A stretch of 63,606 bases of DNA, counting the filler, from Folioceros fuciformis (Eukaryota), in NCBI GenBank assembly GCA_049999805.1. It is 11 parts of 11 records of this genome, joined end to end, with 100 filler letters (N's around TTAATTAATTAA, not from the genome) between each part and the next. Parts side by side here need not be neighbours in the genome. Positions count along the whole stretch, not along the records: positions 5,711 to 12,914 come from JBNGIO010005050.1; positions 13,015 to 21,795 come from JBNGIO010005052.1; positions 21,896 to 27,083 come from JBNGIO010005053.1; positions 27,184 to 35,626 come from JBNGIO010005054.1; positions 35,727 to 38,942 come from JBNGIO010005055.1; positions 39,043 to 40,723 come from JBNGIO010005056.1; positions 40,824 to 49,494 come from JBNGIO010005057.1; positions 49,595 to 58,055 come from JBNGIO010005058.1; 3 more parts are not named here. One strand, given 5' to 3'. Each line of letters begins with the position of its first letter. Positions within the stretch are counted from its first letter, which is position 1. This document shows positions 8,263 to 60,720 of the stretch, in pieces. A model generated the notes under the pieces. It made no database searches, had not been told where the DNA came from, and saw only the letters and a program-made list of their open reading frames with translations. Both the position numbers and the translations under genes were made by a program.

Positions 8263-8294
<32 letters not shown>

Positions 8295-8481: not shown

Positions 8482-11006
8482 AGACCAACCTGCCAGGGCA
8501 TTGACCTGGTTGAGCATGCAGGGGCAAAAGGAAGCAGAGGCACCGGTGAAGCTAACCAAGGCTGAAGTGAGTCGGCCGCAGCTGGAGAAAATTCGATAGA
8601 CCTTGAGTGCAGCCAAGGAGCACGCGGAGGAAGAAGCATGTCGAGCCCGAGAGGAGATGCAAACGCTGAAGGAGCAGCAGGAACTGCTCCTGGCTCAAGT
8701 TAGGGAGGCCCATGGAACTAACCAGGAAATGCAGCAGGAATTGTTGAGGGCCTAGGAATAGGAGGTGGCTGTAGTGGAGAAAGTGCAGAAATTGGCAGAT
8801 AGGTACAAGCGGGAACGAGACGAAGCCCGGAGCTGGGTGAAGGGAAAAGGCAAGGCTAGGTGAAGTAGCCGAATTGCGATGAAGGTAGCCGAGGAGGCTA
8901 CCGGTCGAAGAGAGACCACGCTGGTAGAGGAAAGCCCGACCAAGGTAGAGGAGGCAGCAACTGTCAAGGAGCCCGCGACCGGCAGAGCTGGAATGGCAAC
9001 CCGCACGAGGAGGGCGGGGCAGGGCGAAGCGGCCACTAGGGAGATGGAGGATCTCCTAGTGCCACTAGAGAGCAGAAGACATGCAGTTCAGAATTGCCCA
9101 CGGGAGGAGGGGGAGGGACAAGGGCCTACTGCCTACAACTGAGGACTCGTAGGGGTCCTTCTTCCAATGTTGTCAAGTGTGGGGATTGCCTCCTTACTAT
9201 TCAGAGGCAGTCCTGGAAGAACTAACGGAGGAGGAGGCACGGGCATGGGTTGAGCGAGAGCCCGTGATGGTCCTCAGCAACAGACGACTGGAGGGAGGAA
9301 GGAGCACCCCTCGACGGGGCCCACCTACGTCGCCACTGGAAAGGTCAAGCAGTAGTGGTGAGGTAGAAATCCTCTAGGAGGATTTGTCTGACCAAAGGCA
9401 AGGGAGGAGGGCTCGAGGCTAGCGGTTGAGAGGAGGAGCACGACGACCGGACGGGAGGCGAGTGCGGCGATAAGATAGGCCATAGTAATTGCATCTTAGA
9501 ATAGAATACTGTAGGATCTGGAGAAGATGCTTTTCTTGGACCTGATGCCACTCATAGTAAAGAGCGCCCACCTGTCCGCGGACTAGAATTAATGGCGGCT
9601 GTGGACTCGCCATCGTGAACAAGAGGCCTGTTGGCGCCTCACTGAAGCAGCGAGAGTTCAACATTTCCAACTCGAGGAAGCTTGGCGGCGACCGCTGCCA
9701 GATAGAGAGATCCGGGTAGGTGAGTGCGTGCGGCGTACTTGGGTGGAGGTCTATGTGACTTCTTTGCTCCACAACGAACAGTATCGTGGGCGAATCGGTG
9801 GGAAGTTCTCACCGAGTGGAAGGCAACCTTCCCCCCTACTCCTGGTAATTTGCGTTGTGTGTGGTGGTTGAGGTGAGGGACGAATCCGCCGGTTGCGGAG
9901 TGGAAGAAGGGGGTAACCGCTTCCCTTATCCCCTGAATCCTCAACTGCTCTTCAAATACAGTGGTGAGGAGTGAGTTGAGGTGAAGGTTGACTAAGTGTT
10001 GCAGTCGGGGAAGGAGACGAATTCGCCGATCGTAGAGTGGAGGGAGATTTCTCCCCTCCCTTATTTCCCGACTGTTGGGTGCAACCTGGTCTTAGTGTTG
10101 GTATGAGTGAGTGTTGAGATAAGATCGTGTGAGAAAGAGCGAAGGGAAGGAACAAGTGAATCGATACGAGAAGGAGTGAGTGACGCTGTGTCTGCAGAGA
10201 GGGAGACAAATCCACCGACTGCGGAGTGGAAGGAGTGTCCCTCCTTCCCTTATTTCCCAAACCGCTGACCGCGAACAAGTGTGCTGTGAAGACTGAGTGC
10301 TTGAGAAGAGAGTAAAGGTTGCGACGAGGTCGCTGAAGAATTCCTGGAGAGACTTGGGTGCTGGAAAACACTGTCAAGAGTCTGTGGTACGAGAAATTGC
10401 TTGAGGAATCGTGGATGCTGCTGAGAATTGGAGTGAGTTGCGAGGGGTGCTTGTGCGCCGGAGTTGGGCGTATGCTGGAAGAGCTGTGTGGGAGTGTAGC
10501 GTGAGGTGTGGACACCCGTGGAATCGGGTTGTCTAAGTGTGTAACTGTAGTGGTGTGAGGTGTTGAGTAACCCCGACTCGCTACTCTGGGAAATTTGGGT
10601 AGAAACCCGTGAGTGGAAGTCGCAATGGTACCTGTGACGTCAAGTGTCAATTAGGACTTCGGGTTGGACCCACCATGGTAGCGGAACCCACCACCGATTG
10701 TGGAAACACCAACCGGTTGTAAAGGGAACTGTGGTCGTGGAGCCCCCAACCTTGGTTGTAGAGTAGGGACCAGAGCCGTAGAGTAGGGTCTATGGTAGCT
10801 AGGCCAGCTGAGGGGTAGTGGTAGTTGATCTAGCAGGTAGTAGAACTGGTGGTAGGTAAGACCTGACCTAGGTAAGAGTCACCATTAGAAGAAACCTGTG
10901 TTACTTGGCACAAATCATTTCCTTGGGATCGAATCCCACAGCTACAATGACATAGAGGGTTTCTGTGGACCTTGCGGTGTCCTCTGACACAATATTTTCC
11001 TCCGTA
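8482..11006 (+). mobile_element. Athila-like accessory-ORF / structured-RNA / LTR-end family, copy 1 (5'-truncated)
   Basis: Coiled-coil-like ORF remnant, GLPPYYSEAVLEELTEEEARAWVER motif (9177-9377), hairpin module 9491-9655, four three-way-junction motifs 9788-10258, LTR-end block 10915-11006 near-identical to 52905-52994. Confidence 0.8.
9788..10258 (+). ncRNA. Array of four putative three-way-junction RNA motifs
   Basis: Copies at 9788-9842, 9876-9934, 10002-10074, 10201-10258; e.g. GGGA CGAA TCCGC..GCGGA GTG GAAG..CTTC CCTTA TCCC. Confidence 0.65.
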
Positions 11007-11373
11007 GGATGCTACAAGGCGTCCAATTTTTGAGCTAGTATGTTCAATATTGTTTCCATGTTGGTTTGGATACAAACCAGTGTAAAACTTGATTAGCTAT
11101 AAAAGTTATCATACTCTAGTGTGTTAATTTTCATTTGAAGCGGTGTTGAACTTTTAGCATGAGGATACCTATGTCCAAGGGTGTTAGAGTAACGCGGGCA
11201 AGTGTGAGGTGAGCATGTGTGCTGCCTAAATCGGGAAGTGGGCCTGACAGCGTAAAAGTTGGAAGAGTTGAGGAAAGAGTGATGAAAGATAAGAGTTCGG
11301 ACAGAGGATTTAAGAAAAAGGCTGGGCAACCAAAAATGAATAGTAAAGGAGGAAACGTCAAGGGTCTGGGGGG

Positions 11374-11779
11374 TGTTGAGATGTCACCCCCGCCATGCTC
11401 AAAGGAGGTTAAAACAAGTTAGTTGACGCAAGATGCAGAATCTCAAAACTAAGAGCACTATAACAAGGCTCTTAAACTCAAATAAAAAGGAGAATTACAA
11501 AAACAACACAATACAAGTGAAGAGGGAGTTAGACTACATATACTAAGTGGGTTCATCCCTTCTTTTATGGACCTATGGGTGGCACTCTCATTTCGTGCCC
11601 AATATGGGATAAATGACCCCAAACCCTACAATACTTCTTTTGCCTAACATAGCAAAGTCTAATAAGCTATATATATATATATATATTAATCATAACCTTA
11701 ATCACTCTTACCACTAATTAGTACAAACTCAATAAGCTGGATTAGCACTAATTAATCTCAACATTAATCATGCTTAACA
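11374..11779 (-). mobile_element. Solo LTR (~406 bp)
   Basis: TG...CA termini, reverse complement of 36748-37142, flanked by GGGG on both sides; splits a PPT (GTCTGGGGGG) from a TGTCG start at 11784. Confidence 0.9.
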
Positions 11780-12694
11780 GGGGTGTCGTGAAATTGTGGC
11801 AAAAATGGACTTATAGTAGAGCATCATGGTGAACGTCATAGTTTAGTGGAATTCAGTTGATTAGATAATAGGTGATTAAACTAACTCAACCTAAATTAGG
11901 TAAATGGCTAAAATACTAGCCATGGCTACTTGCCCACTAGAAGCACGTGGGCTCATACAGCCCATGGAAAACTGCTTGGAGGGGCACCACACATAAAAAC
12001 AAAACACAGCGAGGAAAAAGGTAGTTGTCGAAGTCGCTCATGAGAGGAACCACCGGACGACCTAAACCTTTTTTTGCTGTTCACTAGCCGTCTATGAAAG
12101 GAAGAGCTATGCAGATTGAGGGTGTAAGGGAGATGGTGGCATCCCGCTAGTGACTTACCAACTCTGGGCAGCCCGACGAGGGCAGTCCCTTTTTGCAGCT
12201 TTACAACACGGAGTGAGCTATGGCGCATGTGAGCAGCCTAACATCTTACTTCGACAACTACCTTTGTCATGCAATGAGGGCACGGGCGAGGAGCTCTTAG
12301 AGCGCAGCCAAGCAGCTACAGCAAGGCAGCATTTGTGGAGCACCCATCCAGACCCGTTTGTGTGAAGTCTGTCATTTTCCCTTTGCATTGCTAGGGATTT
12401 AGGGTTTGTAGGGACTCTAGGGGCGCGGCCAGACATGTGCATTCAGGCAGCAGCCTTGGAGAATCCCTCTCTTCCTTTGTAGCAGCCGTGAGTCTGGAAT
12501 GTGCATGCTCAGTGTTGTAGCAACTACCTTTCTACTCGCAGCAGCTACATGTTGATCCAAGGCTCTATAGACAGGGCTTAGGAGAGCTGGCAGCTAAGGC
12601 ACCGCCAAGAGACCACATCGAGGCAGCCCCAGCAAGTCGCTCAGCATTTGACGCACTTAAGCCTCGGGTTTGGGGTTTGAGGGTGTGGAAGTCA

Positions 12695-12915
12695 AACTTC
12701 AGGAGGACATAACGGCCGCAATTCCGCGTGTCTGCCTTAGATCTACATACCAACAGATTTGTCGTGAAGAGGCGAACATTTTGGTATGTTTTGCGCTTAC
12801 TTTTGAGCTGATTCCAGAGACTGATCTTAGATTTTCAGTGTGGATCAGATCACTGCAAGAGGAGGACATAACGGCCGCAATTCTGCTTGGCTCCCTTTGA
12901 TCTACATACCAACAN
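12695..12915. repeat. Imperfect direct repeat, period ~158 bp
   Basis: AGGAGGACATAACGGCCGCAATTC...GATCTACATACCAACA at ~12701 and ~12860; GGTATG...TTTTCAG intron-like signals lie between. Confidence 0.75.
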
Positions 12916-13095
12916 NNNNNNNNNNNNNNNNNNNNNNNNNNNNNNNNNNNNNNNNNNNTTAATTAATTAANNNNNNNNNNNNNNNNNNNNNNNNNNNNNN
13001 NNNNNNNNNNNNNNTGTGAGTAGTCTCTCCCGCAGTCCAGTCACCGTGCGTATTCACGAGGTTAGTTATGCTCACAACAGTGCACTTGGCCGCAG

Positions 13096-13449
13096 ATGGT
13101 GCCTGCGGGTACCAAGGTCTGCAACAGTAACGACACTGCCGCCGCCGCTTTCACTGCTTTGTGCAAGCTAAATGATCGCATTCACAGCTACACGGACCTG
13201 TTATGCTGCCCTGGTTGCGGAGGTGTCAGCCTGTCTGGCCCGTCCCGTCACCACTGGTGGATCATACTTGCAACCGCTGCTGTTGGTCTTGCCGTCAGTG
13301 GTGGCGCATTCTATCTGCTCTGGAAGCGGAGTTGCAAGTGCATCGCTACATCCAGCGAGCAGCACACCCGTACCAGCAGAGGGGATCCCACCGGTCTCTT
13401 CGATGAAACTCGCTTGCAGGGTGAACCTCTTCCCAACCCAAAGATATGA
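13096..13449 (+). CDS. Putative exon encoding a single transmembrane helix with a Cys-rich flank
   Basis: Preceded by acceptor-like CCGCAG; WWIILATAAVGLAVSGGAFYLLW followed by basic KR; upstream sequence lost in a gap. Confidence 0.35.
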   Translation: MVPAGTKVCNSNDTAAAAFTALCKLNDRIHSYTDLLCCPGCGGVSLSGPSRHHWWIILATAAVGLAVSGGAFYLLWKRSCKCIATSSEQHTRTSRGDPTGLFDETRLQGEPLPNPKI

Positions 13450-13797
13450 ATTGCACATCCGGCATCCTTGGGTACTGTACGAGGCCTTGAGCACCAAGTA
13501 CCTACCGTAGTCGTAGTCCTGCCTTTGGTCGCCTTGTGCCAGGATCCATCCCCATTGCCAGCCTCTACCTGCAATCCTGTGCAACACTCCACGAACAGGC
13601 ACGGATAGAGAATCCATCACCTTCTATAGCAGCTGGTGAATTGGAGACCACCTGCCCCCACATGGATGAAAGAAAATGATGTGGAGCACTGTATTTGAAC
13701 ATTTGAGGCCTTGATGTTAGGAAGCCAGCTCTGTGTGCGTGACTTCAACCCTCCAGGACACCGTCCTTGCAAGCTCAACAAATACAGGGGAATTTCC

Positions 13798-13990
13798 TGC
13801 TTAGTGGAGATAGGACCCTGTTGTATTCATTGAGAGCTTGCTTAGTGGAGCTTTGAGAGCTTGCTTAGTGGAGCTTTGAGAGCTTGCTTAGTGGAGATAG
13901 GACCCTGCTGTTGTATTCATTGAGAGCTTGGTTAGTGGAGCTTTGAGAGCTTGCTTAGTGGAGATAGGACCCTGCTGTTGTATTCATTAT
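13798..13990. repeat. Compound tandem repeat (22-bp and ~40-bp units)
   Basis: TTGAGAGCTTGCTTAGTGGAG units alternating with ATAGGACCCTGCTGTTGTATTCA. Confidence 0.9.
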
Positions 13991-14054
13991 GATGGTTGTT
14001 ATACATGTGCCCTAGGGTTATTTACCAATTCAATTTAATGGCTACACAAAGTTA

Positions 14055-17000
14055 TGTTAGTCCAAAACTCGTCTTCAACCTAGTTGTTTGTCCCGTTAGG
14101 AGATTCTCATTAGGTACCTTTTAGATGGGTTCGTGCTACCTCGTCCGACTATGGCTGGACTCGGCTTCGTTCCTGTTAGCTACACACGTAGATTGGCCAT
14201 GGCGGAGCGTGTGTCATTCTCTCCCACTTAAGCTGGCCAGGTCCTCCTGGCGGATCTGTCTGGGAGCTTAGGAAGCTTGCATCTAAGCCCGCAAGTAAGG
14301 GAAGTGATGGCAAAAGGCTGCGGGTCGCAGCATTGTCAGGTTCGCCTGTCCAGGCCACGAGGAAGTCTGTCACACAGCGAGAACGGAGCTGGCGATTGCG
14401 GCACTGGAGGATACGATGGGGCTGGTGAGGGCCAAAACTTGGCGGCTAGGCTAGGTTTTCCAAACCAAAGCAATCTGGAACGGCGGAAGTTGCCGGGGTG
14501 GGGCACTGAGCAGAGGAGCTGCCTGGAGCTGGGCTGGGCTGGGAAGAAGGGTGTGATTCTAGCTGCTGGTCGGCAGAGGGATCAGGTGGATGTGCAGGTA
14601 GGGTTGTGGCGGCGGGTGCCGGGCTGGAGATCACCGGCTTGAGCATGGAGATGTGAAATGTCCTGCAAAGACGCCAATCAGCGGGAAGGTCGAGCTGGTA
14701 TGCTATTGGGTTGATCTGCCTAGACACTATGAAGGGCCCGGCGTACCGATAGGATAGCTTATCCTGTGACTGGATTAGAGCTGGGTAGCGGTGAGGCTTC
14801 ACGCAAAGCCACACTTGTTGGCCGACACTATAGCTGACTGCCCGGCGATGCTTGTTGGCTGTTTTACAGGATCTGTCCCGGGCAGTGAGGAGTTTCTCCT
14901 TCGCCAACTTGACCTCATGCCAGATGTCCTCCGCAACCTCAGCTGCACTCCGCCACTTCCCCTGGCTGCTGGGCCACAAGCCTGGTGGTAGTGGAGTTTC
15001 TCCATAGAGTAGCTTGAACGGGGCCACCCCTGTAGCTGCGTGCTTCAACGAGTTGTAGGCATACTCTAGCACAGGGAGGAGTTCTTCCCACCTTGTATGT
15101 TTCTCATGGGTGAAGTGACGAAGCATGTCTTCCAGGACCTAGTTTTGTTTCTTTGTTTGTCCGTTTGTCTCTAGATGATATGCTAACGACATGTTTTGCT
15201 TAATGCCTAGGGTTTCCATGAATGTTCTCTAGAACCCTGAGGTGAACTTAGGATCCCGGTTAGAGACGATGTCTTCTGGAGCTCCATGCAACCTAAAGAT
15301 TTCCTGGACGAAGACTCCAGCTAGCTTGGATGTTGTGATGGTGGAGGTCACGGGAACAAAGTGGCAGACCTTGGAGAACCTATCATTGACCACCGTGATA
15401 CTGTCTTTTCCAAAACGGGTATGTGGCAGGTGAGTGATGAAATCCATAGCAATTGACCTGAATCGTCCACTTGGAATTTGTAGGGGTAATAACAGACCCG
15501 GCATCTTCTGATGGCTAGGCTTGGCTTGCTAGCAGGAGAGCACCCATTCGATGCAGTCAGCGCGCATCCCTTCCCAATGGAAGTGCTCCTTGACCTTGGC
15601 ATATGTCTTGTCAATGCCCAGGTGGCCCGAAATGGGTGAATCATGCATGTCATGCGGGATGGCCTGTTTCAACTCCGTGAGCTGTGAAGGGATGACCAGT
15701 CTCCCCTTTCGATACACAAAAGCATCCTGGAGTGAATACTGCTGGGTAAGTGCTGTAGGGACCCCTGTTTGTGCATCTATCAATAGCTGTCTATACAGTT
15801 TCGACAAGACTGGGTCATGGGGAATTCCATTTCGGACTAACTAGATTGTTTGGGTCTGGGTTCTCATGAGGGTGCAGGCACGCCGACTCAAGGCATCTGC
15901 AACCACATTAGTTGAGCCTGATACATACTAGATCTCCAAGTGGTAGTCTACCAGAGCTTCAGCCCAACGTCGCTACCGAGCATTCAAGTTGGGCTGAGAG
16001 AAGAAATGCTGCAAGGAGTGGTGATCAATATGACACACCACTTTCTGCCCCAGGAGGTAATGTTGCCATACCTTCAAGGCATGTGTAATGGCCAACATCT
16101 CCTTATCATGCACTGGATAGTTTAGTTGTGCTCCTTGCAACTTCCTGCTTTCGTAGGCAATTGCCCTTCCTTGTTGGGATAGAATTGCCCCTATGGCATA
16201 GTCTGACGCATCTGTGTGGATGGTGTATGGCATGTGAGGATCTGCCACTAGCAGTACTGGCGCCGAGCCAAGGGCCTGCTTCAGCTGCTCAAAAAGCTAC
16301 GATGACCTCGGCTCCCAACTGGATGGGTTGCGGTGGAATGCCGGAGGGCATCCGTCAGGGGAAAAGCGATCCTGCTGAATCCCTTGATAAAGCGTTTGTA
16401 GAAGCCGGCCATACCCAAGAACCCTCTGAGCTGGGTTATGTCCTGTGGCAAGGGCTAGTTCATCACTACGCTGACCTTACGTGTGTCAACCTGGATGCCC
16501 TCTGCACTTATCACAAGTCCCAGGTATTCACATTTCTCTCTCATGAAGACACTTTTTTCTCTTGCCTAACAGCCTGTTGGCCCGTAGCAAGTCCAGCACC
16601 TTCCTAACCAGCTGGAGATGTGTTTCAGGGTCAGGGGTGTAGATGAGAATGTCATCCAGGAAGACTTCAATGCCATGTCCCAGTAGGGGTCGCAACACTT
16701 CCTGCATGAGACACTGGAAGGTGGCAGGAGCATTGGTAAGACCAAATGGCATTACCCTGAATTCGAAATGTCCATGTCGAGTTCGAAAGGCTGATTTGTG
16801 TTCATCTCCTAACCTGATCCAGATCTGGTGAAAGCTAGATCTTAGATCAATCTTGGTGAATAGCTTGGCTCCATGCAGCTGGTCGAGGATCTCGTCAATC
16901 CTTGGCATCTGGTAGACGTTTCTCACTGTGGCTCGATTAAGCCCTCGATAGTCTATGCACAGTCGCCATCCTTCATCTAGCTTGGCGACTAAGAGGACTG

Positions 17001-18705
17001 GAGCACTAAAGGGGGACACAGAAGGTTGTACAAAACCCTTCTGTAAGAACTCATCAACCTGTTTTTTGATCTTTTTGTTTTCCATTGTAGATGTCCTAAA
17101 GGGCTAGATACTAACCAATTTGTGGCCTGGCAGCAGCTCAATGGCATGGTCCACGGGTCTTCGAGGAGGGAGCTCCGTGGGTTCAGCAAACACGTCCTGA
17201 TACTCCCAAAGCAGGTCCTTCATGGATTGTGGGAGCTGGTCCTCATGGACCTTGGCTTCTGCAGCTCTTGACTCCGTAGTGCCTTCTAAGGGAAGCACCT
17301 TCTTGAGCTTTGCTATGTACAAGAATCTGCCCATGGCAGTTGCTTTATTGAGAGCAGAGACAGCAAATAGCTGCTTGTCAGGGAGGTACTGTTCGCCCTG
17401 CATGACGTATGTCTGATGGTCTTGCAAGAGGTGAACAACGTTTTTCTTCCAGTCTACCTCCAGCTGATCCAAGTGACTGACTAACCATGGCTTGCCTATG
17501 ATCAGGTCATGGCAGAGCGAGGGCATCATGGTCAGCTTGAGAACCTCCTTGAACCCTCTTAGAAAGGTAAATTCTGCTTCCGTCCACTATTCTCTACTTG
17601 TCTCCTTCTCACCTAGGGCTGTGATCACTGTGGAGTCCTGACCTGTGTCCTTGACTTACAGGCCAGCTCTTTCTACAGCTGCCTTGGACACATAATGATG
17701 ACTGGCCACAGAGTCCAGCAACCCTGTGGCCCGGACTTCGGCCAACGACACCTCAAGTTTGATAGGTATGTGAGCTAACTGGCATGCAGCAACTGATCCG
17801 AGTTTACTTGCAAAAATCAAGGATGGTCACAACTAGAGTGGGTTCACTAACCTCTATGAGGGTTATGGCGTGTTCGCTCTTGACAGGGGCTGGGGATACG
17901 CCGCTCCTAGTGAACTTGCCTGTCTCCTTCAGCCAGCTTATGAAGTCCCTCCTGAAAGGGCAGGATTTCGAACCATGTCCGGATGCTGAGCAGGTAAAGC
18001 ACTTCCTGGCCTTCTTGTAGTCTTCCTTCTCTTCCTTCGTGAGGATTATGAAGGTTGGCTTTTTCTCTGTGGCGTTGGCAGACTTGCTCCACTTGGGCTT
18101 GGGAGGGCCAGTTGAGGAAAGATGCTTGTACTTGTTGGTGCCATAGTTGATGGCCGCCTTCATGGCCTCCACCAGGGTTGTGGGGTTCGTCTGGTTCACG
18201 TATGCCCTCATCTCGAACTTCAACCCATCGATGAACTTCTCAATTTTTTATTCCTCATCCAACCTAGGCATGTCAAGGGTAAGTTGTAAGAACTTGTCAC
18301 AGTACTCTTAAATTGTGCCTTGTTGGAAGATCTTCCTCAATTGCTGATATAGGTCCTTGCAGTGGTTCACTGGCAGGAACTGTTCAAGGAAGATTTGTCA
18401 GAAGACTGGCCAAGAGTAGATCGGGGACTCCATGCCGAGGTCGACTTGTTTCTCCCGTTGGTGCCACCAACGGTATGCATACCCCTTCAGTGACATGACG
18501 CAAAATTGGATCTTCTACAAGTCATCTTTGTCAGAAGCAGCAAGATACTTGTCAATTTTGTCTAACCAGTCGTGAAAGCTCTAGGCATCCTTGGCTCCTC
18601 CATCGAAGGTCTTGATTTTTTGATGGAGCTCCTTGTCCAGCTGAGGCCTGGGTTTGAACTGGTAGTGTGAAGAATGCAAGTTGCTAGGCAAAGCAGCCAA
18701 TGCAT
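14055..18705 (-). mobile_element. Ty3/gypsy chromovirus (gag-PR-RT-RH-INT-chromodomain, PPT, 3' LTR), decayed
   Basis: Zn knuckle CFTCSASGHGSKSC; RT WRLCIDYRGLN, MPFGLTNAPATFQ, FLDDIL; RNase H TDASDYAIGAIL; INT HDSPISGHLG, IAMDFIT, YAGPF; chromodomain PHRILQCRNRQLRSRCVTDFLVAWTG (~14300-14425); PPT 14217-14230; LTR starts TGACAC at 14216 (far end ~14055 inferred). Confidence 0.93.
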
Positions 18706-21700: not shown

Positions 21701-21795
21701 GATCATAACCAGCCACTCCTGGAAGAACTGAAAAGTGTCAGACTTGCATTTCATTGGGTAAGTCCAAGAGTATCTGCTATAGTCGTCAGTAATTG
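18706..21795 (-). mobile_element. Ty1/copia (INT-RT-RH, PPT, ~154-bp 3' LTR) nested in chromovirus gag
   Basis: LRSDNGTEF, QQNGVAERRNQTL, YKSRLVARGF, LYVDD, DADWA, RTKDIEIHHHFVR; PPT TTAAGGGGGTG 18860-18870; LTR TGTTAG...TGTACA 18859-18706; 5' part lost in a gap. Confidence 0.93.
18953..19048. repeat. 48-bp tandem duplication spanning the copia pol stop codon
   Basis: AACCATCTTGGTGTTGT(C/T)TGTTGCTAGGGCTGGAAGGTTATGTAGTCC x2. Confidence 0.95.
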
Positions 21796-45548: not shown

Positions 45549-45555
45549 TATATAA
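45549..45555 (+). promoter_or_regulatory. TATA box
   Basis: CCTATATAAGG about 430 bp upstream of the ATG at 45987. Confidence 0.55.
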
Positions 45556-45986: not shown

Positions 45987-46460
45987 ATGGAGGGAACGGC
46001 CGCTGATCTAACCTATGTAGAACTGTGCAAGGACGCCACACATGGACCCATGGCACAGGTCGAGGTGGCGCTTTGGCCCAACATGGACCACTGGAAGGCC
46101 CGAGCACGAGGACTGGTGGAAGAACTAGGACTTGGGTTCATGACGAAACGATGGAACTACGTGAACCCAAGCCTAGTACAGGAGTGTGCACAGCAACTGC
46201 GAGGTAGGACGTCAGTGGAAGGTATCAGGGGAAGACCACAGGATTGGGATGTGGAGCTGGTAAGGGCGGTATATGGGCGAAGCCAGGAGGAGGGTGGCGG
46301 ATTTGTAATTGAGTCTCTGCGGAAGCGTAGCATGGTGGCAGCGGCAGCAGCCCTGTTTAAGTCGGGGATAGGAAGGGAGGCCAACGGCTGGCTGGCATGA
46401 GAGATGGCATCCGCTCAACTCATGGGCCTTGCCAAATGGTTCTTATGCTTCTTGCACTAT
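45987..46460 (+). pseudogene. Accessory ORF N-terminus, Transposase_32/plant-mobile-domain-like
   Basis: NPSLVQECAQQL...IRGRPQDWDVELVRAVYG resembles the LVREFY...VRG...I..YG pattern of gypsy accessory ORFs (from recall); REANGWLA*EMASAQLMGLAKWFL overlaps KEANGWLVRDMASPQLLGLARWFL at 49595. Confidence 0.6.
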
Positions 46461-46980
46461 AAGAAGCAGGACTACCAACGGAATGCTCACGCGCGCCAAG
46501 AGGACCGGACTAGAGATAGCGGCAGCCAGAGGGACAGAGGGCTCCCTAGCACCCTTAGAAAGTAGAAGACATACAATCAAGGATAGCCCACGGGAGGAGG
46601 AGGTAAGCACCTCATCTACAGCAGGAGGCCAGATTGAATTACAGCACATGGATGAGTAGTCCGCAAGAACCGACGCGGTGCAGAGGGATTTTTCCTTCCC
46701 TATTCCCCGACTCATCTATCGTGCTTGGAATTTGAGCGTGTGTGTGTGCAGGCCTGTCTTCCAGTTGAGATCCCCACGCTACTAAGAGGGTAGCGTGTGC
46801 GAGACTCTCTTACAAGGGGCCTATCACATTGTTCGGTGGCGGGAGGTGAGGGGGACGAATCCGCGAGAGCTGCGGCACGGGAGGAATTCCCCTTCCCTAT
46901 TCCCCCAGCTAACTACTGCGTTCTGAAACCCATCTCGAGGTTGAGTTGAGAGTGAGTGAGACAAGTGAGTTGAGTGAGTG

Positions 46981-49494: not shown

Positions 49495-49594
49495 NNNNNN
49501 NNNNNNNNNNNNNNNNNNNNNNNNNNNNNNNNNNNNNNTTAATTAATTAANNNNNNNNNNNNNNNNNNNNNNNNNNNNNNNNNNNNNNNNNNNN

Positions 49595-51772: not shown

Positions 51773-52055
51773 ATGCAGGCTAGAATAGGATTTTTTTAGC
51801 GTGCTTTATTTGGACCTAAGTCGCTCAGGATTTAAGAGCGCAGCTCCCCTACCTGGCAGACTTTATGGCGGAAAAATTGCCATCACCGTGTACAAGAGGC
51901 CGGTTTGGAGGCCTAAGGAATTAGCAAGCACCAGCCGAACAGTCGACCTTGCAGGGACCTAGCGATGGCCGTTGCTGGACAGGAGGTCCAGGCAAGCGAG
52001 CGCACGTAGTAACCAGGGGTGCGGGTGTAGGTGGTGGGCGCTCCGTGATCAGGTC

Positions 52056-52198
52056 CGGGGATGAATCGGGAGGAGGAGCCTCGCCGAGTGGGAGAGAAGC
52101 TCCCCAGCTATCCTCGAGGTGGTCACATGGGGTGGTGTGGGTGTCGGAGCCGAATCCGTGAGTGCGGAGTGGAAGGGACTCCTCTTCCCTTAGCTCCG
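52056..52198 (+). ncRNA. Two putative three-way-junction RNA motifs
   Basis: 52145-52198: CGGAGC CGAA TCCGT gagt GCGGA GTG GAAGGG actc CTCTTC CCTTA GCTCCG; variant at 52056-52116. Confidence 0.7.
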
Positions 52199-53559
52199 GT
52201 ACCTCACCATTTCTCAACGTTAATTGGAGCCTAGGAGGGGCCATCGCTGAGAAAGAAGACTGAAGAACCAGAGAAAGGAGAGCGCGAGCGTGCGCGTGTG
52301 TGAGAAGGAGGAGGAGCGAGTGGCCGAGTAGGGGAGGTAAGAGAGAACAAAGTCGGGGCGATCCCGGAGGCGAGGTGTGTAATGTGTGTGGGGTGCACAA
52401 GACGTGGTGTGTATGAGTGACTGGTCGCGATGAGACTGGAGAGACTGTGAAGAAACTGAATGGAGACTGCCGGGGCGTATCTAAGGTGGAAGATCACGCG
52501 GGTGGAAGGCGTCTAACAGATTGTTGCTGTTCATGTGTGCGTGCGCTTGTTTCTGAGGTGAGTGAGACGGTTTGTGGTGAACCAAGGAAGGGAAGCGCCA
52601 AAGAGGATGCGCGGGCGGGAGGTAATCAGTCGGGTAGGGATGACCCGGTGGAAGAGAAAATCCTAGAGAGCGGGAACTAAGAGAGAGAGAGAGAGAATGG
52701 GACCCACGAGAGGTAGCCCGGTGGGCAACTAAGGGTAGTCTAGGGGAAGGTAGCCCTTGGGGCGACCAGGTGGTTGAGGGGTCATCCGATGGGGAAGTAA
52801 GGGGGCTTGGTAAGGTCCGAGCACTGGACGTGTGTGCGTGGGTCAGTCGAGCTTTAAGTGCTAATTGACTTTAGAAGCTAACCTATGTAGTTTAACACAG
52901 TTCATTCCCTTGGGATCGAATCCCAGAGCTACAATGACATAGAGGGCTTGTGTGGACCTCGCGGTACCCCTGGGTACCATATTTTAACCCCACACCTATG
53001 AGTGAAGGAGAGAAGGAAAAAGAAACAATAAAAAAGGGGTAGGATCAGAGCCCCACTCCCCTTTCTCACAACCCCATCAATCACCTCTCATGAGCAGCAA
53101 TCCAAAGAGAGCCTAGCTGGCTCCACACTAAAATCACCAGATCTATGGGATGCAAAAACCCCCATTGAAGCTAGTTCCAGGTGATTAGCAAGTTAGAGAG
53201 AAAAGAAAATCCTTGGGAGATGGCTCTTCACTCCGTTCACTCACAGCCCTCCTTCTCACTGCTTCATCCAACCTCTCATACAACCTATGCCTCCTCCAAC
53301 TCACAGATGCCAGGATCCTACCTCTACATTGCTTCCTGATCATGGAAGGGAAAAAAGACAAAAAGAAGGGCAGCCGCCGAGTTCCTTCTCCCCCTTGGTA
53401 GCCTCACTGCCTTTCCACTAGCTGAGCTCACTGCACTCTTTGTTGTGGCAGCCTCACTAGCTCTCCACTATGGCAGCACTGCCACCTCCTCTCACAATCT
53501 TTTGCTTCCCGCCCATTTGCTCACAAATGGTTGCTTTCCCTAAGTTTGCAAACACCTGC

Positions 53560-53684
53560 GGACTTAGAGTGGTTGCATGTTGCATGGGAACTTAGAGTAC
53601 TTGCATGCTGGTACCTTGGAGTGCCTACATGCCACTTGGGGACTTAGACTGTCGGCATGCCATCTGGTGACTTGGAGTACTTGC
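53560..53684. repeat. Degenerate ~25-30-bp tandem repeat
   Basis: ACTT(A/G)GAGT..TTGCATG units x~5. Confidence 0.65.
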
Positions 53685-56600
53685 TGTAGGGTTATTAAAG
53701 CCCAATGTGCTTAGACTAATGTGTTTAGTCTAAGATTAGTGTCTAGTTAAGTATCATTTGTTTAGATTAGCTTAAGCTAATCTATAGGAAGCTTCTTACG
53801 TAGCTTCCTATGCGCTTCTTGTGAAGCTTCCTTGGGAGCTCTTCTAGAGGGTATAAATACTCCCTTGAGCTCTCTTGCAATGAGAAACTTTGTGTGAGAG
53901 TGTGAGACCTCTCTTTCTCCTCTCCTCCTTGCTTCCTCCTCTCCTCCTTCACCATGTCACTCCTCTAGCGATCCTTCAACTGGTATCAAAGCTCGGGTTG
54001 TGGAGCAAGAGGGTGATGGCTCTAGATGCTACGGAGACGGTGCACAAGGCCATGAGGAAGGCATCGAAGTGAGCGAGGGTTGTGTGCGGCAACCCGCCTG
54101 CCGAGGTGCAAGGGGCTCCAGCCCCGCTGAGCTGAGGCGGCGGCAGCAGCAGCGTAGAGTAGGAGCGGGGCAGCGGGAGGGCGCCACCACGCTATCTTAC
54201 AGCGCGGGGTACCTGCCTCGAGCGGGGTGTCGGGGGCAGGGGGCACCACTCCGAGGCGCTGCTAGGCCTCCCCGGCGCCAGGCCGTTCGGGCGTCGTGGG
54301 AGCGCCAGGCCCCCCCGGCTGCTGGGCCGCGAGGTGCTGGATCAATCCAAAGCAGAAGGCGGCTAGATTTCGATTGGAGGTCAGGACACGCCAGTTGTGA
54401 GCAACCGAGGTCTACAAATTGTGGATAGCCGATTCGGAACAAGGCGTGAGGATAACTATCAAAATATACATTACACTCCGACAGTTTCTGACTAGCCTTT
54501 TACTTGATTTGCATCAATTTTGAATCATGACGTCTTCAGAAAATGTCATGTTTAATATCGAGAAGTTAGATGATAATAACGTCTCGTTCTGGAAAGAACA
54601 AGTGCAGAAGTTGTAGATCAGGCGCATAAAGTTGCGTAGGTGTGAAACCTGTTAGCATGACTCAGGATGAGTGGCAGGATCTAGATGAGCTTGCTAGATC
54701 TACCATCACGCTAACATTGTCAAAGTCGGTCTACTTCAATGTAAAAGACAAGACCACAAGTTACGAGCTATGGCAAAAGTTGTGTGACCTGTATGAGAAG
54801 CAAAGTGCGGCTTCTCAGGTGTACTGGTTGCAAAAGCTGGTGGGCTCGAAGATGACGAAAGGGACGAAGATGTCCAATCATCTGAATGAGCTTAATACCA
54901 TTTTCAGCCAGCTCTCATCTCAAGGTACCTCATTCCCAGATTCTGTGAGAGCTATGTTTCTGTTGGTCACATTACCAGAGAGTTGGGACACCTTTCATAC
55001 CTCTGAGTAATTCCGCTCCCGCCAGTGGTCTCACCATTGTAAATGTAGAAGGTAGCCTATTAACAGAAGAGGTGAACAAGAAGAATATGGAACCTTCAAA
55101 ACGTTCCAATGCCCTCATGGTCAAAGGAAGGTCCATTTCAAAGGGGAAGTACGAGGAGCGAAGTCTTTCCCGTAGCCAATCTTGTAGTTGTAACAATGTT
55201 GAGTGTTACCATTGTCAGAAAAAGGGTCACATCAAAAGGGACTACGAGAAGTTCAAGAAGGACAAAGGAAAGGAGAAGAAGCAGAGTGACAACAAGGCAA
55301 GTCCAAGTATCAAGCCTGACGAGGTGAATTTTGTTGATGATGGAGATATTCTTATCTCTTCTTCCTTGGATTTTGCGCAATTGACAGCCGTGGATACTCA
55401 CTTATTCTCTAATTGGATAATTAACTCTGGAGCATCTTTCCATGTTACTCCGCATAGGGAGTGGTTTAGCACCTATGATGCTACTAGGAAAGGATATGTT
55501 CGGCTTGGAAATAACTACGCATGCGAGATTGCAAGCGTTGGTGATGTGCAGCTGAAGTTTGACACAGATCTTCATTCATAATGAAGGATGTTAGGCATGT
55601 TCCGAAGTTAACAAAAAGCATGATTAGTGCAGGGCAGTTGGATGACGCCGGCTACCACTGTTGGTTTGGGAATCATTCTTGGAAGATCTCCAAAGGTTCT
55701 CTTGTGTTAGCTCGTGGATCGAAGTGTGGCACTTTGTACTCACTTCAGGTGACCACTGTCAGGGATCATGCAATTTGTGTAACAGAACAGCCAAATGTTT
55801 CCTTGTGGCATTGTCGGTTAGAACATATGTCTCAAAACGGAATGAAGATCTTATCTCGTTTTGGTTACATCCCTACTTTTGACTTCTCCGATTTCTCCGT
55901 GTGTGAGCACTGTTTGTATGGGAAACAGATGAAATCACCACATGAAGCAAGAGGTAAACACAAAAGTAAACCTCTTGAATTGGTTCACAGTGACATTTGT
56001 GGACTTATGCCCACTGTATCATTAGACGGTACATCCTATTTTGTCACTTTCATAGATGATTTCTCATGCAAGGTGTGGGTTTATCCTTTGAGGAAAAAGG
56101 ACGATGTTCTAACAATGTTTTAAGAATTCGTCACTCTTGTGGAGAATTAGTCTAGCCTCCGACTAAAGTGTATAAGGATAGACAATTGTGGAGAGTACGT
56201 TTCGAAGGCTTTCCAGTCATTCTTTGATTCCAAGGGAATCAAGAGAGAATTGACTGCCCCGTATACTCCTCCCCAGAATGGTGTGGGTTGAATAGATGAA
56301 CAGGACCATTCAGGAGAGGATGCATAGTTTGTTGTCAAACTCTGGATTGCCTAACGGATTTTGGGCAGAAGGAGTGTCTACTGCGGTGCATCTTATTAAC
56401 AGATCTTCTAATAAGGCTGTGGATGAGCAGGTTCCAGAGGAGATGTGGTCTGGAAAGAAGTCATCTTACAAGCATCTACGAGTGTTTGGCTGCGAGGCAT
56501 ACTACCATGTTCCAAAGGAGTTTCGGAACAAGTTGGCACCCAAGTCCAGAAAAATGTATTTTTCTTGGCTATGGTGAATCTGGTGAGATGGGATACCATC

Positions 56601-57811
56601 TATGGGATCTAGAGGCCAAGAGGGTTGTTCGCAGCAATGACGTGTTCTTCAATGAGACCAATATGCACAAGAAGCCTACTCCAACTGTGGAGGTGCGAAG
56701 GGTGGTCTTCCAAGAAGATAGACTTGACTATCCCGTGCAGGTTGAACGTCGTGATGTGCAGGAACAAGTTCCTCCACTTGTAGAAGAGGAGAGAGTGCAA
56801 CCAGCTTCGGTCGAGGCGCCTGTGCTTCGTAGGTCATGAAGGATTTCAAGAGGCCATGTCAGTGACTGACAAGGACAAGTGGGAGTAGGCGATGTAGTCG
56901 TAGATGGATTCGCTCCATAAGAACCTAACTTGGGAGTTGGTTCGGTTACCTAGGGGTAAGAAACCATTGCCATGCAAATGGGTGTATAAGATGAAGGTCA
57001 TACCCCATTATAGCAAACCCAAGTACAAGGCACGATTGGTTGCTAAGGGTTTTAAGCAACAACAAGGTATTGACTTTGATGAGATTTTCTCACCAGTTGT
57101 CAAAATGACCACTTTGCGATGTGTTCTTGCTCTGGTTGCGAGGAATGACATGGAACTTGTCTAGATGGATGTGAAGTCAGCATTTCTGCATGGTGATCTC
57201 CGAGAAGAGGTATACATGCAGCAACCAGTGGGTTTCATTGAGAAGGGCATAGAGAATCTAGTGTGCAGGTTAAAGAAGAGCCTTTCTGGTTTGAGACAAG
57301 CACCCAGAGAGTGGTATTCCAAGTTCCACTCATTTATGCTTTCTCAAGGCTACAAACGTAGCGATGAGGATCATTGCTTCTATACGAAGCAAGCTAAGGA
57401 TGGAAGCTTAATCATATTGGTCCTCTACGTGGATGGTATGCTAATTGTTGTGAATAGCAGTGATGAGATTTCAGCGTTGAAGTCAAAGTTGAATGCTCGC
57501 TCGGACATGACAGACTTGGGAGAGGCCAGCCATATTCTTGGCATGCGTATTCGTCGAGACAAACATAAGCATTTGCTTTACTTGTCTCAAACTAAATACA
57601 TTAACAGGGTGCTTCAACGTTTCAACATGGAGAAGGGGAAGGTATTAAAGGTACTCAGTTGTCTCCATTTGTGAAACTTTCAAGCAAGGATTGTCCAAGC
57701 TCTTTGGAGGACAAAGCTGAAATGGAGAAGGTTTCATACTTATCAGCTGTAGGGAGTTTGATGTATGCAATGATTGCTACACATCCTAACATTGCTTTTG
57801 TAGTGGGAGTG
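53685..57811 (+). mobile_element. Ty1/copia (Tnt1/Tork-like): 5' LTR, PBS, gag-PR-INT-RT, decayed and interrupted
   Basis: LTR TGTAGG...CCTTCA 53685-53978 with TATAAATA 53852; gag from ~54528; CYHCQKKGH; WIINSGASFH; LVHSDICG; KYKARLVAKGF; LYVDGMLI; ends at VVGV where another sequence begins. Confidence 0.93.
53981..53992 (+). promoter_or_regulatory. Primer binding site, tRNA-iMet type
   Basis: TGGTATCAAAGC, one mismatch to canonical TGGTATCAGAGC, 2 bp after the LTR. Confidence 0.9.
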
Positions 57812-58055
57812 TGTGAACGAAAAAACCTTTCGGAATCCCCATTTTGAGCGACGGAATGAGCAGGTTGTGATTCTTTTTGTGAAGGGACAGGCGAATCGGC
57901 TTAGTAAGCGAGTAAGACCAGGGTGTTCATACCCAAAGTCCACCTTGGGCTTCGGGGTTTGGGGGTGTACTGGAGATCGGGACAAGGAGGAAGGAGGAAG
58001 CAGCGAGTGCCTCCCTGACCCTCGAGTCCTTGAGAACATTCAGGTAGGCCAAAGT
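57812..58055. mobile_element. Start of an unclassified insertion (TG terminus) in copia RT
   Basis: RT similarity stops at TGTGAACG; runs into a gap. Confidence 0.5.
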
Positions 58056-58155: not shown

Positions 58156-59207
58156 TGTACTCTTAGGAGATGACTCCGGTCTTGCCATTCATGGCATAGG
58201 GATGGTGACTTTCAAATTAGACGATGGTTCTATCCTTATTCTGACGGATGTTCTCTATGTTCCACACATGGCCAAGAACCTTATCTCCATTCGGCATCTT
58301 ATGCAAGATGGTCTTTTTAAATTGGAGTTTGTCAAAGCCAGTTGTCTACTCTATCGTTCCTCTCAGCCACACAAGGTGGTTGCCAGAGGTTGTCTCCAAA
58401 GCGATCTATATATATTTTCTGGCACCCTTGTGTCTTCCTCCAGTGTTTCTGTAGTGGATTCGACTAAGGCTGCAAGTACTACAAGGCACTCGTCCTCCGG
58501 GCAAGCCTTCTTATGGCACTGTAGGCTTGGGCATCTTAACTCTGCCAAGCTTCTTGCCATGTCCACGCAGGATCTCTACCGTGACAAGCTTCCAGCCTTG
58601 GCGAAGACTTCCCCATTTTGTGAAGCCTGCGTGTTGGCTAAGCAGCGTAGTGCTCCATACTCTAGTCTTCCTGCCCACAGAGCTTCTCAGCCCTTGGAAC
58701 TAGTTCATGTGGATCTGTGTGGACCTCTTCCTGTACTCTCTTTAGGCGGAGCCCGCCATTTTATGACAATTGTTGATGATTACTCTCGTTATACCTTTGT
58801 GTATCCGCTCCGTCTCAAGAGTGACTCCTTTGCTGTGTTCCAGCCCTTTGTCTCGATGGCCGAGTTGCACACAGGGTGCAAGCTGCGGTGCATTCGTTCC
58901 GACAATGCAGGGGAACTCAACAGTGGTCTCTTCCAAGCATTCTGTGAAGATAGAGGGATTACTCGCCAGTTTACAGTCCCTTACACTTCTGCTCAGAATG
59001 GTGTTGCGAAGAAGGCCAACGGTGACCTTATGGCCATGGCTAGGGCTATGCTTGCCCAGTCCGGTCTGCCGAAGTCCTTTTGGGCTGAGGCTATCTCCAC
59101 AGCCTCTTATATAAAGAACCGGCTGCTTACGAAGGCTGTTGCTGGTCGTACTCCCTTTGAATGCTGGTTTCGCTATAAGCCTCTTATCTCTCACCTTCGG
59201 GTTTTCG
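58156..59207 (+). mobile_element. Ty1/copia protease end, GAG-pre and integrase fragment
   Basis: Open 353-aa frame: LWHCRLGH, CEAC, LVHVDLCGP, VDDYSRY, IRSDNAGE, QNGVAKK (catalytic E appears changed to K), HLRVF. Confidence 0.93.
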
Positions 59208-59327
59208 NNNNNNNNNNNNNNNNNNNNNNNNNNNNNNNNNNNNNNNNNNNNTTAATTAATTAANNNNNNNNNNNNNNNNNNNNNNNNNNNNNNNNNNNNN
59301 NNNNNNNCTGACTCACTGCTATTCTGA

Positions 59328-60720
59328 GGCAGTCTTAGAGAAACTGACGGAGGAGGAGGCACAGAGGTGGGTTGAATGGGAGCCTGTCCTCATCCTCAGT
59401 AATCAGCAACAAAGGGAGGAGAGGAATTTCCTGCAACGGGACCCACCTGCGCCGACACCAACGAGGGCCAGTAGCAACAACAGTGAGGTCGAGGTCCTGT
59501 GGGAGAACCTGCCTGACCAGCGGCGGGGCAGGAGGGCCAGTAGGGGGAGGAGCACGACGGCCAAGAGGAAGGTGCCAGCGGCAAAGAGGGAGGCGATAGT
59601 AATTAAAATCTAGACTGGTTTTTTTTTTAGATTGTTTTTGCTTGGACCTAAGCCGCTCAGAATTTAAGAGCACTGACTGACCCCTGACAAACTGTATGGC
59701 GGAATCGCCGCCCCTACCGTGTACAAGAGGCCAGTTTGAGGCCTTGGAAAAATCAGCAAGAAACCAGCCAGACATTCCGACCCTTGTGGAAGCCTAGCTA
59801 TGGCCGTTGCTAGACAGGAGGTTCAGGCAAGCGAGCGCACGTAGTGTTCTGAAGGTGTGGGTGCAGGTGGTGGATCCTCCGTAATCAAAAACTGGGAGCG
59901 AGTCAGGAGGAGAGACCTCACCGAGTGGGAGACGAACTCCCTGGCTATTCCTGTGACAGTTGCGTGGAGTGGTAAAGGTGCTGGAGGCCGAATCCGTGAG
60001 TCCGGAGTGGAAGTGGATACCCCTTCCCTTATCCTTCGGTGACCCACCATTCCTTCAAACTTCGGAGGAAAGAAAAGGCCCAGAAGGGGAGCGTTGGTGA
60101 GGGAAGTCGAGACTCATGAGTGGATTAAGAATTGAGAGTTTGTCGAGGATTATGTGTTGGTGAAGCCAACGGGTGGCCTGGGTGGCCGCCACTCTGAGAG
60201 CTGCGAGTGGATGCAGAATGCAGGTGTGGTGATGACAGGAGGAAGAAGTTTTGCAGCTGAACGATTGGGGTGACCGTATGTGAGTTGGCAGTGAGTTGAG
60301 AGTGGAGTTGGGGAACCGTAACATCGGAGCGGTGAGGGTGAGCGCCGCGTGTGTGTAGTCATGACTGACGAGCGAATAAATAGAGCGAGAGTGTGACGAG
60401 AACTAGATGTGTCTATGTGTTGTGACGGGATGCGGTGAGGTGAAGAGAAGTTTATGGGTGTGTATGTGACGGAAGCGCCGGGACGCGTGAGCGGACGTGA
60501 GGGGTGTGGCCTAGGGTTGTGAGCAGAATGTGGTAGTGGAGGTGGGCGTGCTGACCGATTGAGAGTCGGGTAGGTATGTGTAAGTTCGTGTGTGTGTGTG
60601 TGTGTGGGAACTGAGCACCTTCGATCCCTGAGAGGTGTAGTGAGTAGACGTGAGTGGATGGAGGGGTGTGTGCCGTAAGGAAGGGGTGATATCACCATAA
60701 ACCGGTGCCAGAAGCCGATT
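59328..60720 (+). mobile_element. Accessory-ORF family, copy 5 (ORF tail, hairpin module, two motifs)
   Basis: YSEAVLEKLTEEEAQRWVE; 59606-59765 collinear with 51775-51930; motifs 59894-59952 and 59982-60038; right boundary approximate. Confidence 0.8.

Follow-up and report, generated by a model that had tools for sequence, protein, structure and literature searches.

According to Bousios et al. (2010; PMC2829016), Sirevirus copia elements carry on average four identical polypurine tract (PPT) octamers (AGGGGGAG), which are clustered after the env-like open reading frame (ORF) and upstream of the long terminal repeat (LTR) on the 3' side; there the function of these copies is unexplained, the upstream PPTs come without an inverted repeat, and the form of the octamer that is most frequent among classic copia variants carries T as its third letter (G3-to-T). 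The same text describes repeated-motif boxes of 10-20 bp, that is, palindromes with a CGG-CCG core which occur in 8-32 copies, either upstream of env or, within the LTR, upstream of the TATA box, and which are interpreted as elements of the DNA. According to PMC10760457, palindrome clusters are common in the regulatory regions of transposable elements and such palindromes are tied to predicted RNA structure and the production of small interfering RNA (siRNA), a conflict between function and siRNA targeting being proposed, while the Arabidopsis copia element EVADE is reported to use multiple internal PPTs (PMC7197481). Here we describe a repeated module of 65-75 bases in a 63,606-nt stretch of DNA from Folioceros fuciformis (GenBank assembly GCA_049999805.1; 'the window'). 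Its nearest known counterparts are the Sirevirus PPT copies and palindromic boxes; it differs from these, and from the EVADE PPTs, in being a predicted three-helix composite with conserved unpaired words. The module is a real repeated unit of conserved position and orientation and of high copy number; it is most likely a lineage-specific cis-element of a high-copy retroelement unit, and we tentatively take it to be a multivalent protein-binding RNA module.

The window consists of 11 contigs (c1 to c11; Table 1) joined by ten spacers of the form N44-TTAATTAATTAA-N44, the first at 5611-5710, so that distances between features on different contigs are meaningless. An earlier, sequence-only reading of the window had listed the arrayed copies under one interval, 9788-60038; they form not one 50-kb array but five arrays of two to four copies in four of the concatenated contigs, with four copies on the plus strand of c2, one and a decayed copy on the plus strand of c8, four on the minus strand of c8, and two each in c9 and c11. 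A covariance model (R1), constructed from a MAFFT alignment of the 13 copies and the structure proposed in that reading, was run with filters off over both strands of all 63,606 bases. All 13 copies are recovered, with scores of 41.5-79.2 bits (E 1e-8 to 2e-18), and so is the decayed one at 12.6 bits (E 0.26), which bears out the earlier count of at least 13 copies and one degenerate relic. Since training copies match by construction, the informative result is the absence of further copies: no other full-length match with E<0.3 is found in the 63.6 kb on either strand, and the remaining 22 of the 36 rows are fragments at E 0.3-10, several of which represent the P3 palindrome on the opposite strand. 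A regular expression on the junction words alone already picks up most copies.

From the start of one copy to that of the next, the distances are 90, 137 and 189 nt in c2, 89 nt in c9 and 90 nt in c11, and, in c8, 217, 90 and 263 nt on the minus strand and 203 nt on the plus strand. The first copies in c2, c9 and c11 (A, G and I; type 1) have a long P2 and a degenerate third junction in common, and each is followed, after 89-90 nt, by a type-2 copy (B, H and J). Pair and spacing are kept although the three subfamilies are only ~70% identical. Because the type-1/type-2 pair is common to all three, it must be older than their split, and a module pair 89-90 nt apart appears to be the ancestral arrangement. 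Copies K/L and M/N, in turn, are recent tandem duplicates with units ~217 and ~264 nt apart, and G/I and H/J occupy orthologous positions of two subfamilies; with many copies being recent paralogues, the number of independent lineages is nearer 6-7 than 13. All copies come from one genome and one relative, the latter contributing, under a second species label, a 158-nt contig which spans 52059-52217 (copies G/H) with 8 differing letters and 3 gaps.

Conservation within the module, measured in the model-guided alignment by the average fraction of the 13 copies in which a column has its most frequent letter, is graded. The junction words CGAA (0.90), GUG (0.85) and CCUUA (0.85) are the best-kept columns, the six stem strands follow at 0.65-0.79, and the loops, with lengths ranging from 3 to 13 nt, reach just 0.35-0.41, compared with 0.46-0.52 for the flanks. 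Conservation thus decreases from junction to stem to loop, and pairing is kept by different stem sequences, as had been described on first inspection. The junction letters deviate in three to four copies (A, E, G, I) which are otherwise maintained in appearance.

For the 13 copies, 80.1% of the 221 cells pair, as compared with 76.0% in column shuffles, and this level is reached by 3 of 500 shuffles for the MAFFT alignment (A1), made without fitting to the structure, and by 1 of 500 on the fitted alignment (A5). When partners are slid by 1-3 columns, pairing drops to 47.5-64.7%. The informative cases of covariation are the transversion-type variants of P2, which is present in at least five versions (UCCGC/GCGGA, UCCA/UGGA, CUGCG/CGUAG, UCGGUGGGA/UCUCACCGA and UCGGGAGG/CCUCGCCGA), and of P1 (GGGGGA/UUCCCU, CGGAGC/GCUCCG, CUGGAGG/CCUUCGG and the 8-bp CAGUCGGG/CCCGACUG). 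The covariance-model check on the 13 aligned copies that had been proposed at the outset not only recovers them: the structure model outscores a sequence-only model in 13 of 13 cases, by 7.9-19.6 bits, a gain which is supportive but not independent, both models having been trained on the same copies. The minimum free energy (MFE) fold is the three-helix junction in ~10 of 13 copies (P1 fully included), with copy H yielding a clean three-way junction at -29.3 kcal/mol, and P3, taken as a hairpin by itself, surpasses its shuffles (p<0.05) in 12 of 13. Taken as a whole, the three-helix fold is plausible and moderately supported. Folding energy is lower on the sense strand in 12 of 13 copies (sums of -318 versus -276 kcal/mol), and the sense strand is the more likely functional RNA strand.

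Several observations weigh against an RNA module of this kind. (i) Stricter measures of covariation are weak: two-sided change occurs in 10 of 17 pairs versus 7.6 expected, matched by 74 of 500 shuffles, and 24 further pair types face 22.3 expected, matched by 145 of 500 (both A5). In P1 and P3 the 5' strand is made of purines and the 3' strand of pyrimidines, which explains the high shuffle baseline, since most transitions then keep pairing. (ii) Taken alone as a hairpin, P2 surpasses its shuffles at p<0.05 in no more than 4 of 13 copies and at p<0.15 in 10 of 13, and in copy C it is lost altogether (no fold, p=1.0). Covariation is modest, weaker than the earlier claim of compensatorily changing stems. 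(iii) Single-copy folding z-scores range from +0.41 to -2.03, some copies adopt an alternative register that draws on the CCUUA word, mismatches are present in several (C, D, I, J), and RNAalifold on the raw MAFFT alignment recovers P1 and P2 in part only. (iv) The strand asymmetry of pairing is small (sense 80.1%, antisense 74.7%), and the statement that G-U pairs fit the sense strand alone was overstated, for 33 G-U cells compare with 21 A-C cells (A-C being G-U on the other strand). (v) The copies are few and related, representing perhaps 6-7 lineages, and conservation of the adjoining non-coding sequence is similar to that of the motif, so that conservation alone does not single the motif out. 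(vi) Right after the stop codon of the upstream ORF lies a U-rich stretch, in c9 also AATAAA, and these could end the mRNA before the motif. (vii) The element class of the carrier is ambiguous among the three models considered below. (viii) The GUG word together with the P3 strand equals a copia polypurine tract; copies G and I have AGTGGGAG letter for letter, identical to the tract of the c2 copia element.

Points (i) and (iii) would also fit if the module had no function of its own and were a tandem-duplicated piece of a fast-amplifying repeat in which purine/pyrimidine runs give rise to hairpins: shuffled columns pair at 76%, z-scores are unremarkable, four copies contain mismatches, and K/L and M/N are recent duplicates. 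Such a passive origin is nonetheless rather unlikely, as divergence has been free in loops and flanks but not in the junctions, and as subfamilies of only ~70% identity retain the module pair, the 89-90 nt by which it is spaced and the letters of the junctions.

Point (viii) introduces a different explanation, in which the arrays are clusters of PPT copies, the counterpart of those in Sirevirus-type and other env-carrying plant LTR elements, serving reverse transcription through extra plus-strand priming, flaps or recombination, and in which the hairpins are secondary. The 5' strand of P3 with the preceding junction (J23) reads AGTGG[G/A][A/G]G in 10 of 13 copies, and AGTGG[G/A]AG departs from the Sirevirus octamer by one or two letters; AGTGGGAG is that octamer with the G3-to-T change, hence the commonest classic copia variant (PMC2829016), and it abuts a canonical LTR start 206 nt past the pol stop in c2 (8322-8337). 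The 5' strand of P1 reads AGGGGGA in 4 of 13 copies, which accounts for seven of the eight letters in the Sirevirus octamer. Like the Sirevirus clusters as far as they are described there, the arrays feature a purine-rich word repeated about four times in non-coding sequence past an extra ORF after pol, and EVADE offers a precedent for internal PPTs (PMC7197481, in part). Yet octamers of this class abound in the window, which is rich in purines, with 29 of the 39 matches located outside the copies, and the exact Sirevirus octamer is found in 0 of 13 copies and seven times elsewhere in the window. Moreover, the word here is one strand of a hairpin within a 65-75-nt module having two more junction words, and the complementary pyrimidine strand, the P2 hairpin and the conserved CGAA and CCUUA would all be superfluous for a PPT, the upstream Sirevirus PPTs being devoid of an inverted repeat in the portion of PMC2829016 cited. 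Finally, this explanation would put the arrays just upstream of a 3' LTR, where the Sirevirus copies cluster within about 0.5 kb; the arrays follow the extra ORF, and the unit extends 0.7-0.8 kb beyond them to a conserved block. We regard PPT copies as an unlikely explanation of the module. The concatenated nature of the window, the identity of the GUG and P3 strand with a copia PPT octamer variant and the known Sirevirus repeat clusters (PMC2829016, in part) all go beyond the sequence-only reading.

The module also shares with the Sirevirus boxes, as partly documented in PMC2829016, the presence of dyad-symmetric repeat arrays in copia non-coding regions, and its helices might accordingly be the dyad symmetry of palindromic, enhancer-like boxes acting at the level of DNA. 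The type-1 P2 (TCGGTGGGA...TCTCACCGA; 3 of 13 copies) has the CGG...CCG core and resembles the box TCGGTCYCACCGA, and type-2 P2 has the reverse order CCG...CGG. The small difference between sense and antisense pairing fits this proposal, as do the palindrome clusters common in transposon regulatory regions (PMC10760457, in part), and the arrays would lie inside an LTR if the c2 copia LTR from 8330 spans the unit. But half-sites vary while their complementarity stays, and loops vary in length as well, which makes for a poor fit to a fixed dimeric binding site; the two P1 strands are ~55 nt apart; and the boxes are single palindromes, unlike a module of three helices, nested or side by side, in which unpaired letters are conserved. 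With two to four copies per array, downstream of an ORF, the arrangement departs from the 8-32 copies upstream of TATA or env; no TATA box is found in c2 8330-10990 or c9 50500-52990, nor one downstream within the unit, and the c8 plus-strand arrays lie ~1.1 kb downstream, not upstream, of a TATA box. Regulatory DNA boxes are thus quite unlikely to account for the module.

The module matches no catalogued RNA family. Rfam 15 gives no match over the whole window at gathering scores, and lax scans (E up to 10) of 45500-53500, 9760-10280 and 51780-53060 return unrelated rows only (E 0.37-8.5, far below gathering). The models covered include hammerhead, twister, pistol, hatchet, hepatitis delta virus (HDV)-like and thiamine pyrophosphate (TPP), and the initial impression that the hammerhead, twister, pistol, HDV and TPP consensus sequences do not fit is in line with these scans. 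The hammerhead ribozyme is a three-way junction that is present in some plant non-autonomous retroelements, and the module resembles it in having three helices, a similar size and conserved unpaired bases. A hammerhead was nevertheless rejected, as CGAA, GUG and CCUUA fit its core in no rotation and no Rfam match appears at E up to 10. Some 12 bases that are unpaired and nearly invariant in a three-helix junction, together with the fact that other retroelements carry ribozymes, might suggest the core of a new small self-cleaving ribozyme. Considering the lack of any Rfam ribozyme match at E up to 10 and the variation of junction letters in A, E, G and I, copies which otherwise look maintained, a ribozyme is highly improbable.

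Wider searches yielded no relatives in the collections covered, which are almost devoid of plant DNA, so that their outcome says nothing on the spread of the motif: a pattern scan of metagenomes gave three loci among the matches listed, none scoring with R1, and scans of viral contigs and prokaryote genomes gave two and four loci. One 25-bit R1 match in a viral contig (IMG/VR) was dismissed, its helices being missing on reading. A literature search found no paper joining 'three-way junction' with 'LTR retrotransposon' and 'copia', and three motif strings occurred only in papers that are unrelated by title or abstract. A sequencing run guessed to be RNA (X4) has five pieces on 50900-54700 and none on the motif.

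What, then, could the module do? We infer action as RNA, for which the evidence at the sequence level is moderate, as well as binding of a protein, the identity of that protein and the step of the life cycle concerned; a multivalent protein-binding module is our preferred, if tentative, reading. The sense-strand RNA of each copy would fold into a small three-helix junction, the recognised part of which would be the unpaired CGAA, GUG and CCUUA along with the closing base pairs, whereas the helices would need only to pair and the loops would be free. Set in C-poor and presumably itself unstructured sequence, arrays of two to four modules ~270 nt past the ORF would constitute a multivalent platform for a protein on the element RNA. 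That protein might be a host factor or the element's own arginine-rich product, and the role might be in nuclear export, in stability, or in selection of the RNA for packaging or reverse transcription.

Known viral RNAs provide partial parallels. The constitutive transport element (CTE) of simian type-D retroviruses and the Rev-response element (RRE), which is bound by the arginine-rich Rev, are export elements, structured RNAs that are repeated or multivalent and are found past the accessory or env gene in the genome's 3' part, as would be the case here. The arginine-rich partner of the RRE is encoded by the element, and here a predicted ORF with an arginine-rich tail lies just upstream. The module is, however, unrelated to CTE and RRE in sequence and fold. 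The exonuclease-resistant RNAs (xrRNAs) of flavivirus 3' untranslated regions likewise are small three-helix junctions in tandem, with conserved junction bases and variable helices; a defining pseudoknot with the 5' flank closes these into a ring, and they stall a 5'-3' exonuclease. The present module gives no xrRNA match in the Rfam scans, which cover such models as release 15 contains, and host and element type differ. It is conceivable, albeit improbable, that the arrays form a Rev/RRE-like pair with the upstream ORF, whose arginine-rich protein would oligomerise on the tandem junctions and thereby mediate export, translation or packaging, or else that they are the core of a new class of small ribozymes.

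Table 1. Positions in the window of the contigs, the module copies and the features around the arrays.
Feature	Position	Strand	Contig and remarks
Contig c1	1-5610		
Contig c2	5711-12914		
Contig c3	13015-21795		
Contig c4	21896-27083		
Contig c5	27184-35626		
Contig c6	35727-38942		
Contig c7	39043-40723		
Contig c8	40824-49494		
Contig c9	49595-58055		
Contig c10	58156-59207		
Contig c11	59308-63606		
Copy A	9776-9850	+	c2; type 1, long P2, degenerate J31; R1 53.4 bits; MFE fold three-way junction
Copy B	9866-9942	+	c2; type 2; 90 nt after A; R1 71.6 bits
Copy C	10003-10077	+	c2; P1 lengthened to 8+ bp, P2 decayed; R1 64.9 bits
Copy D	10192-10266	+	c2; R1 69.8 bits; 75% identity to C over 60 nt
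Decayed copy	46638-46717	+	c8; R1 12.6 bits; sequence-only model 16.5 bits
Copy E	46841-46914	+	c8; J23 altered; R1 59.6 bits
Copy K	48633-48707	-	c8; R1 59.5 bits; inside 221-nt tandem duplicate with L
Copy L	48416-48490	-	c8; R1 68.5 bits
Copy M	48326-48400	-	c8; 90 nt after L; R1 79.2 bits
Copy N	48062-48137	-	c8; GUA in place of GUG; R1 71.0 bits; duplicate pair with M
Copy G	52047-52125	+	c9; type 1; R1 44.5 bits; exact octamer AGTGGGAG
Copy H	52136-52206	+	c9; type 2; 89 nt after G; P1 CGGAGC/GCUCCG; R1 68.7 bits
Copy I	59884-59962	+	c11; type 1; R1 41.5 bits
Copy J	59974-60045	+	c11; type 2; 90 nt after I; R1 56.5 bits
Orphan ORF	50933-51772	+	c9; 279 amino acids stop to stop; arginine-rich C-terminal tail; ends ~275 nt before copy G
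Conserved non-coding stretch, ORF to first copy	51773-52046	+	aligns with c11 59614-59883 and c2 ~9500-9775
G/A/T-rich, C-poor spacer	52207-52870	+	c9; rich in GAGTGAG-like words; GC skew +0.1 to +0.25
Conserved terminal block, ~110 nt	52871-52985	+	c9; also c2 10885-10998; 84% identity over 95 nt
TATA box, leader and ATG ORF	45549-46400	+	TATA box 45549-45555, ORF 45987-46400; upstream of the c8 plus-strand copies, same strand

The ORF preceding the arrays belongs to no Pfam family and has no word-index homologues; a full HMMER search returned two matches, the better of which was read as spurious, the matched protein being a 7-fold tandem repeat. Its C-terminal part in c9 is homologous to c11 59308-59613 and c2 ~8882-9500, and frames further upstream are colinear (c9 50507-50929 with c2 8489-8854). 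The c2 copy contains in-frame stops. Mismatches between c9 and c2 by codon position amount to 0.138/0.223/0.391; as the third position varies most, at least the compared part is coding, and the arginine-rich tail is kept in all three copies (c9, c11, c2). The AlphaFold model of residues 110-279 has a mean predicted local distance difference test score of 41.7, that is, the fold is not predictable. In c2, c9, c11 and on the plus strand of c8, arrays and ORF share their orientation.

Between ORF and first copy, the conserved non-coding stretch (51773-52046) shows a c9-c11 mismatch of ~20%, not above that of the ORF, and its predicted hairpins exhibit two-sided changes in 9 of 59 pairs (for three sequences only), as in a CUAGC...GCUAG stem. 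This stretch and the modules may, on the predicted folds, form one larger structured domain. Downstream, C-poor stretches of 650-800 nt like the c9 spacer follow every array (10267-10880, 60046-60700 and, on the minus strand, 47300-48061). They are full of GAGTGAG/GGTGAG words, which are similar to 5' splice sites, and the modules are the sole C-containing islands within them. The unit closes with the terminal block, whose 37-nt core is found at the c9 and c2 sites only. A hairpin within the block resembles a transfer RNA (tRNA) T-arm (TGGGATCGAATCCCA), and a second hairpin displays a compensatory stem change (GGTACCC/GGGTACC in c9, GGTGTC/GACAC in c2).

The abundance of the unit is evident from contigs of two DNA runs of one sample (X1, X2) that align with 50900-54700 at at least 80% likeness, which number 2432 and 2718 pieces. 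Summed depth is ~2200-5400 in the bins of the ORF (51154-51534), the motif (2334/4247) and the terminal block, and lower in the C-poor spacer (175-985). It collapses from 53059, 27 contig ends being located just behind 52985, where many genomic copies cease matching. Further on there is a separate copia LTR of far higher abundance, which begins at 53685/6 and stops short of a primer-binding site at 53981; given the collapse and this separate LTR, the copia gag-pol downstream in c9 is a different element. That LTR is a 5' LTR of ~290 bp (53685-53992; TGTAGGG...CA) with a summed depth of up to 77,000-99,000; after it come the primer site for initiator tRNA at 53981, which is near-canonical, and, from 54630, gag.

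Past the c2 pol stop (8116) there are 206 nt and then the PPT/LTR junction AAGTGGGAG/TGTTAGAG at 8322-8337 (plus strand), and a like junction, AGGGGGTG/TGTTAGAA, follows pol in c3 at 18852-18867 (minus strand). Homology of c2 to the c9 unit begins at 8489, ~150 nt past the junction, and the c2 unit is without at least 900 nt that are present upstream in c9 and c8. Since a canonical PPT/LTR start precedes the unit in c2, its link to the copia element is uncertain. Shortly past the terminal block, long purine runs lead to GGGG and then T(A/G), at 53000-53039 in c9 and 11340-11373 in c2, and an LTR-like repeat with two further occurrences in c6 extends from 11374; judged by their sequence, the purine runs may mark where the carrier has its actual PPT/LTR junctions. 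In c8, a TATA box, an ATG ORF and the motif follow each other on the plus strand, the ORF running on into 46372-46659, which is homologous to c9 49595-49690, and this copy of the unit is internally deleted relative to c9. The strong TATATAA at 45549-45555 lies 430 nt before the ATG and has ~700 nt of AT-rich sequence ahead of it, which suggests that the carrier has its own promoter, or a 5' LTR, in this region. Two carrier models are equally possible, neither of them better than tentative: the unit could be the post-pol region (long linker) of a Sirevirus-like copia element (model A), or it could have a promoter of its own, as a separate, 5'-truncated or nested element (model C). That it is the inside of a long LTR (model B) seems unlikely.

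As to the window at large, its long ORFs encode Ty1/copia gag, integrase and reverse transcriptase along with one gypsy-type gag (Pfam). The nearest pol homologue among 5.8 billion proteins is 60% identical, and the named matches are angiosperm copia proteins at 35-39%, as befits a repeat-rich, plant-like genome with sparse coverage in the databases. ARAGORN found no tRNA genes in the window, no LTR pairs were found in the five contigs searched, and the initiator-tRNA primer-site motif has 5 matches versus 5.8 expected, of which only that at 53981 adjoins an LTR end. Tandem repeats occur in c3 at 13830-13986, with 23-nt and 67-nt units (TTGAGAGCTTGCTTAGTGGAGCT...), and at the start of c8 (40824-41042), where copies with a 42/84-nt period are 95% identical and read through as a proline/leucine-rich frame.

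If the modules were merely PPT copies or DNA palindromes, they would be an ordinary feature of a lineage-specific repeat family; if the Rev/RRE-like or ribozyme reading were true, they would represent a new RNA family with a new partner. The role of repeated PPT-like and palindromic motifs near the 3' ends of plant LTR retrotransposons with extra ORFs has been open since at least 2010 (PMC2829016). The module described here combines the two in a single unit that can fold and whose unpaired bases are conserved; it would supply a testable RNA-level hypothesis for such repeats, and its covariance model would provide a handle for finding modules of this type in other large plant genomes.

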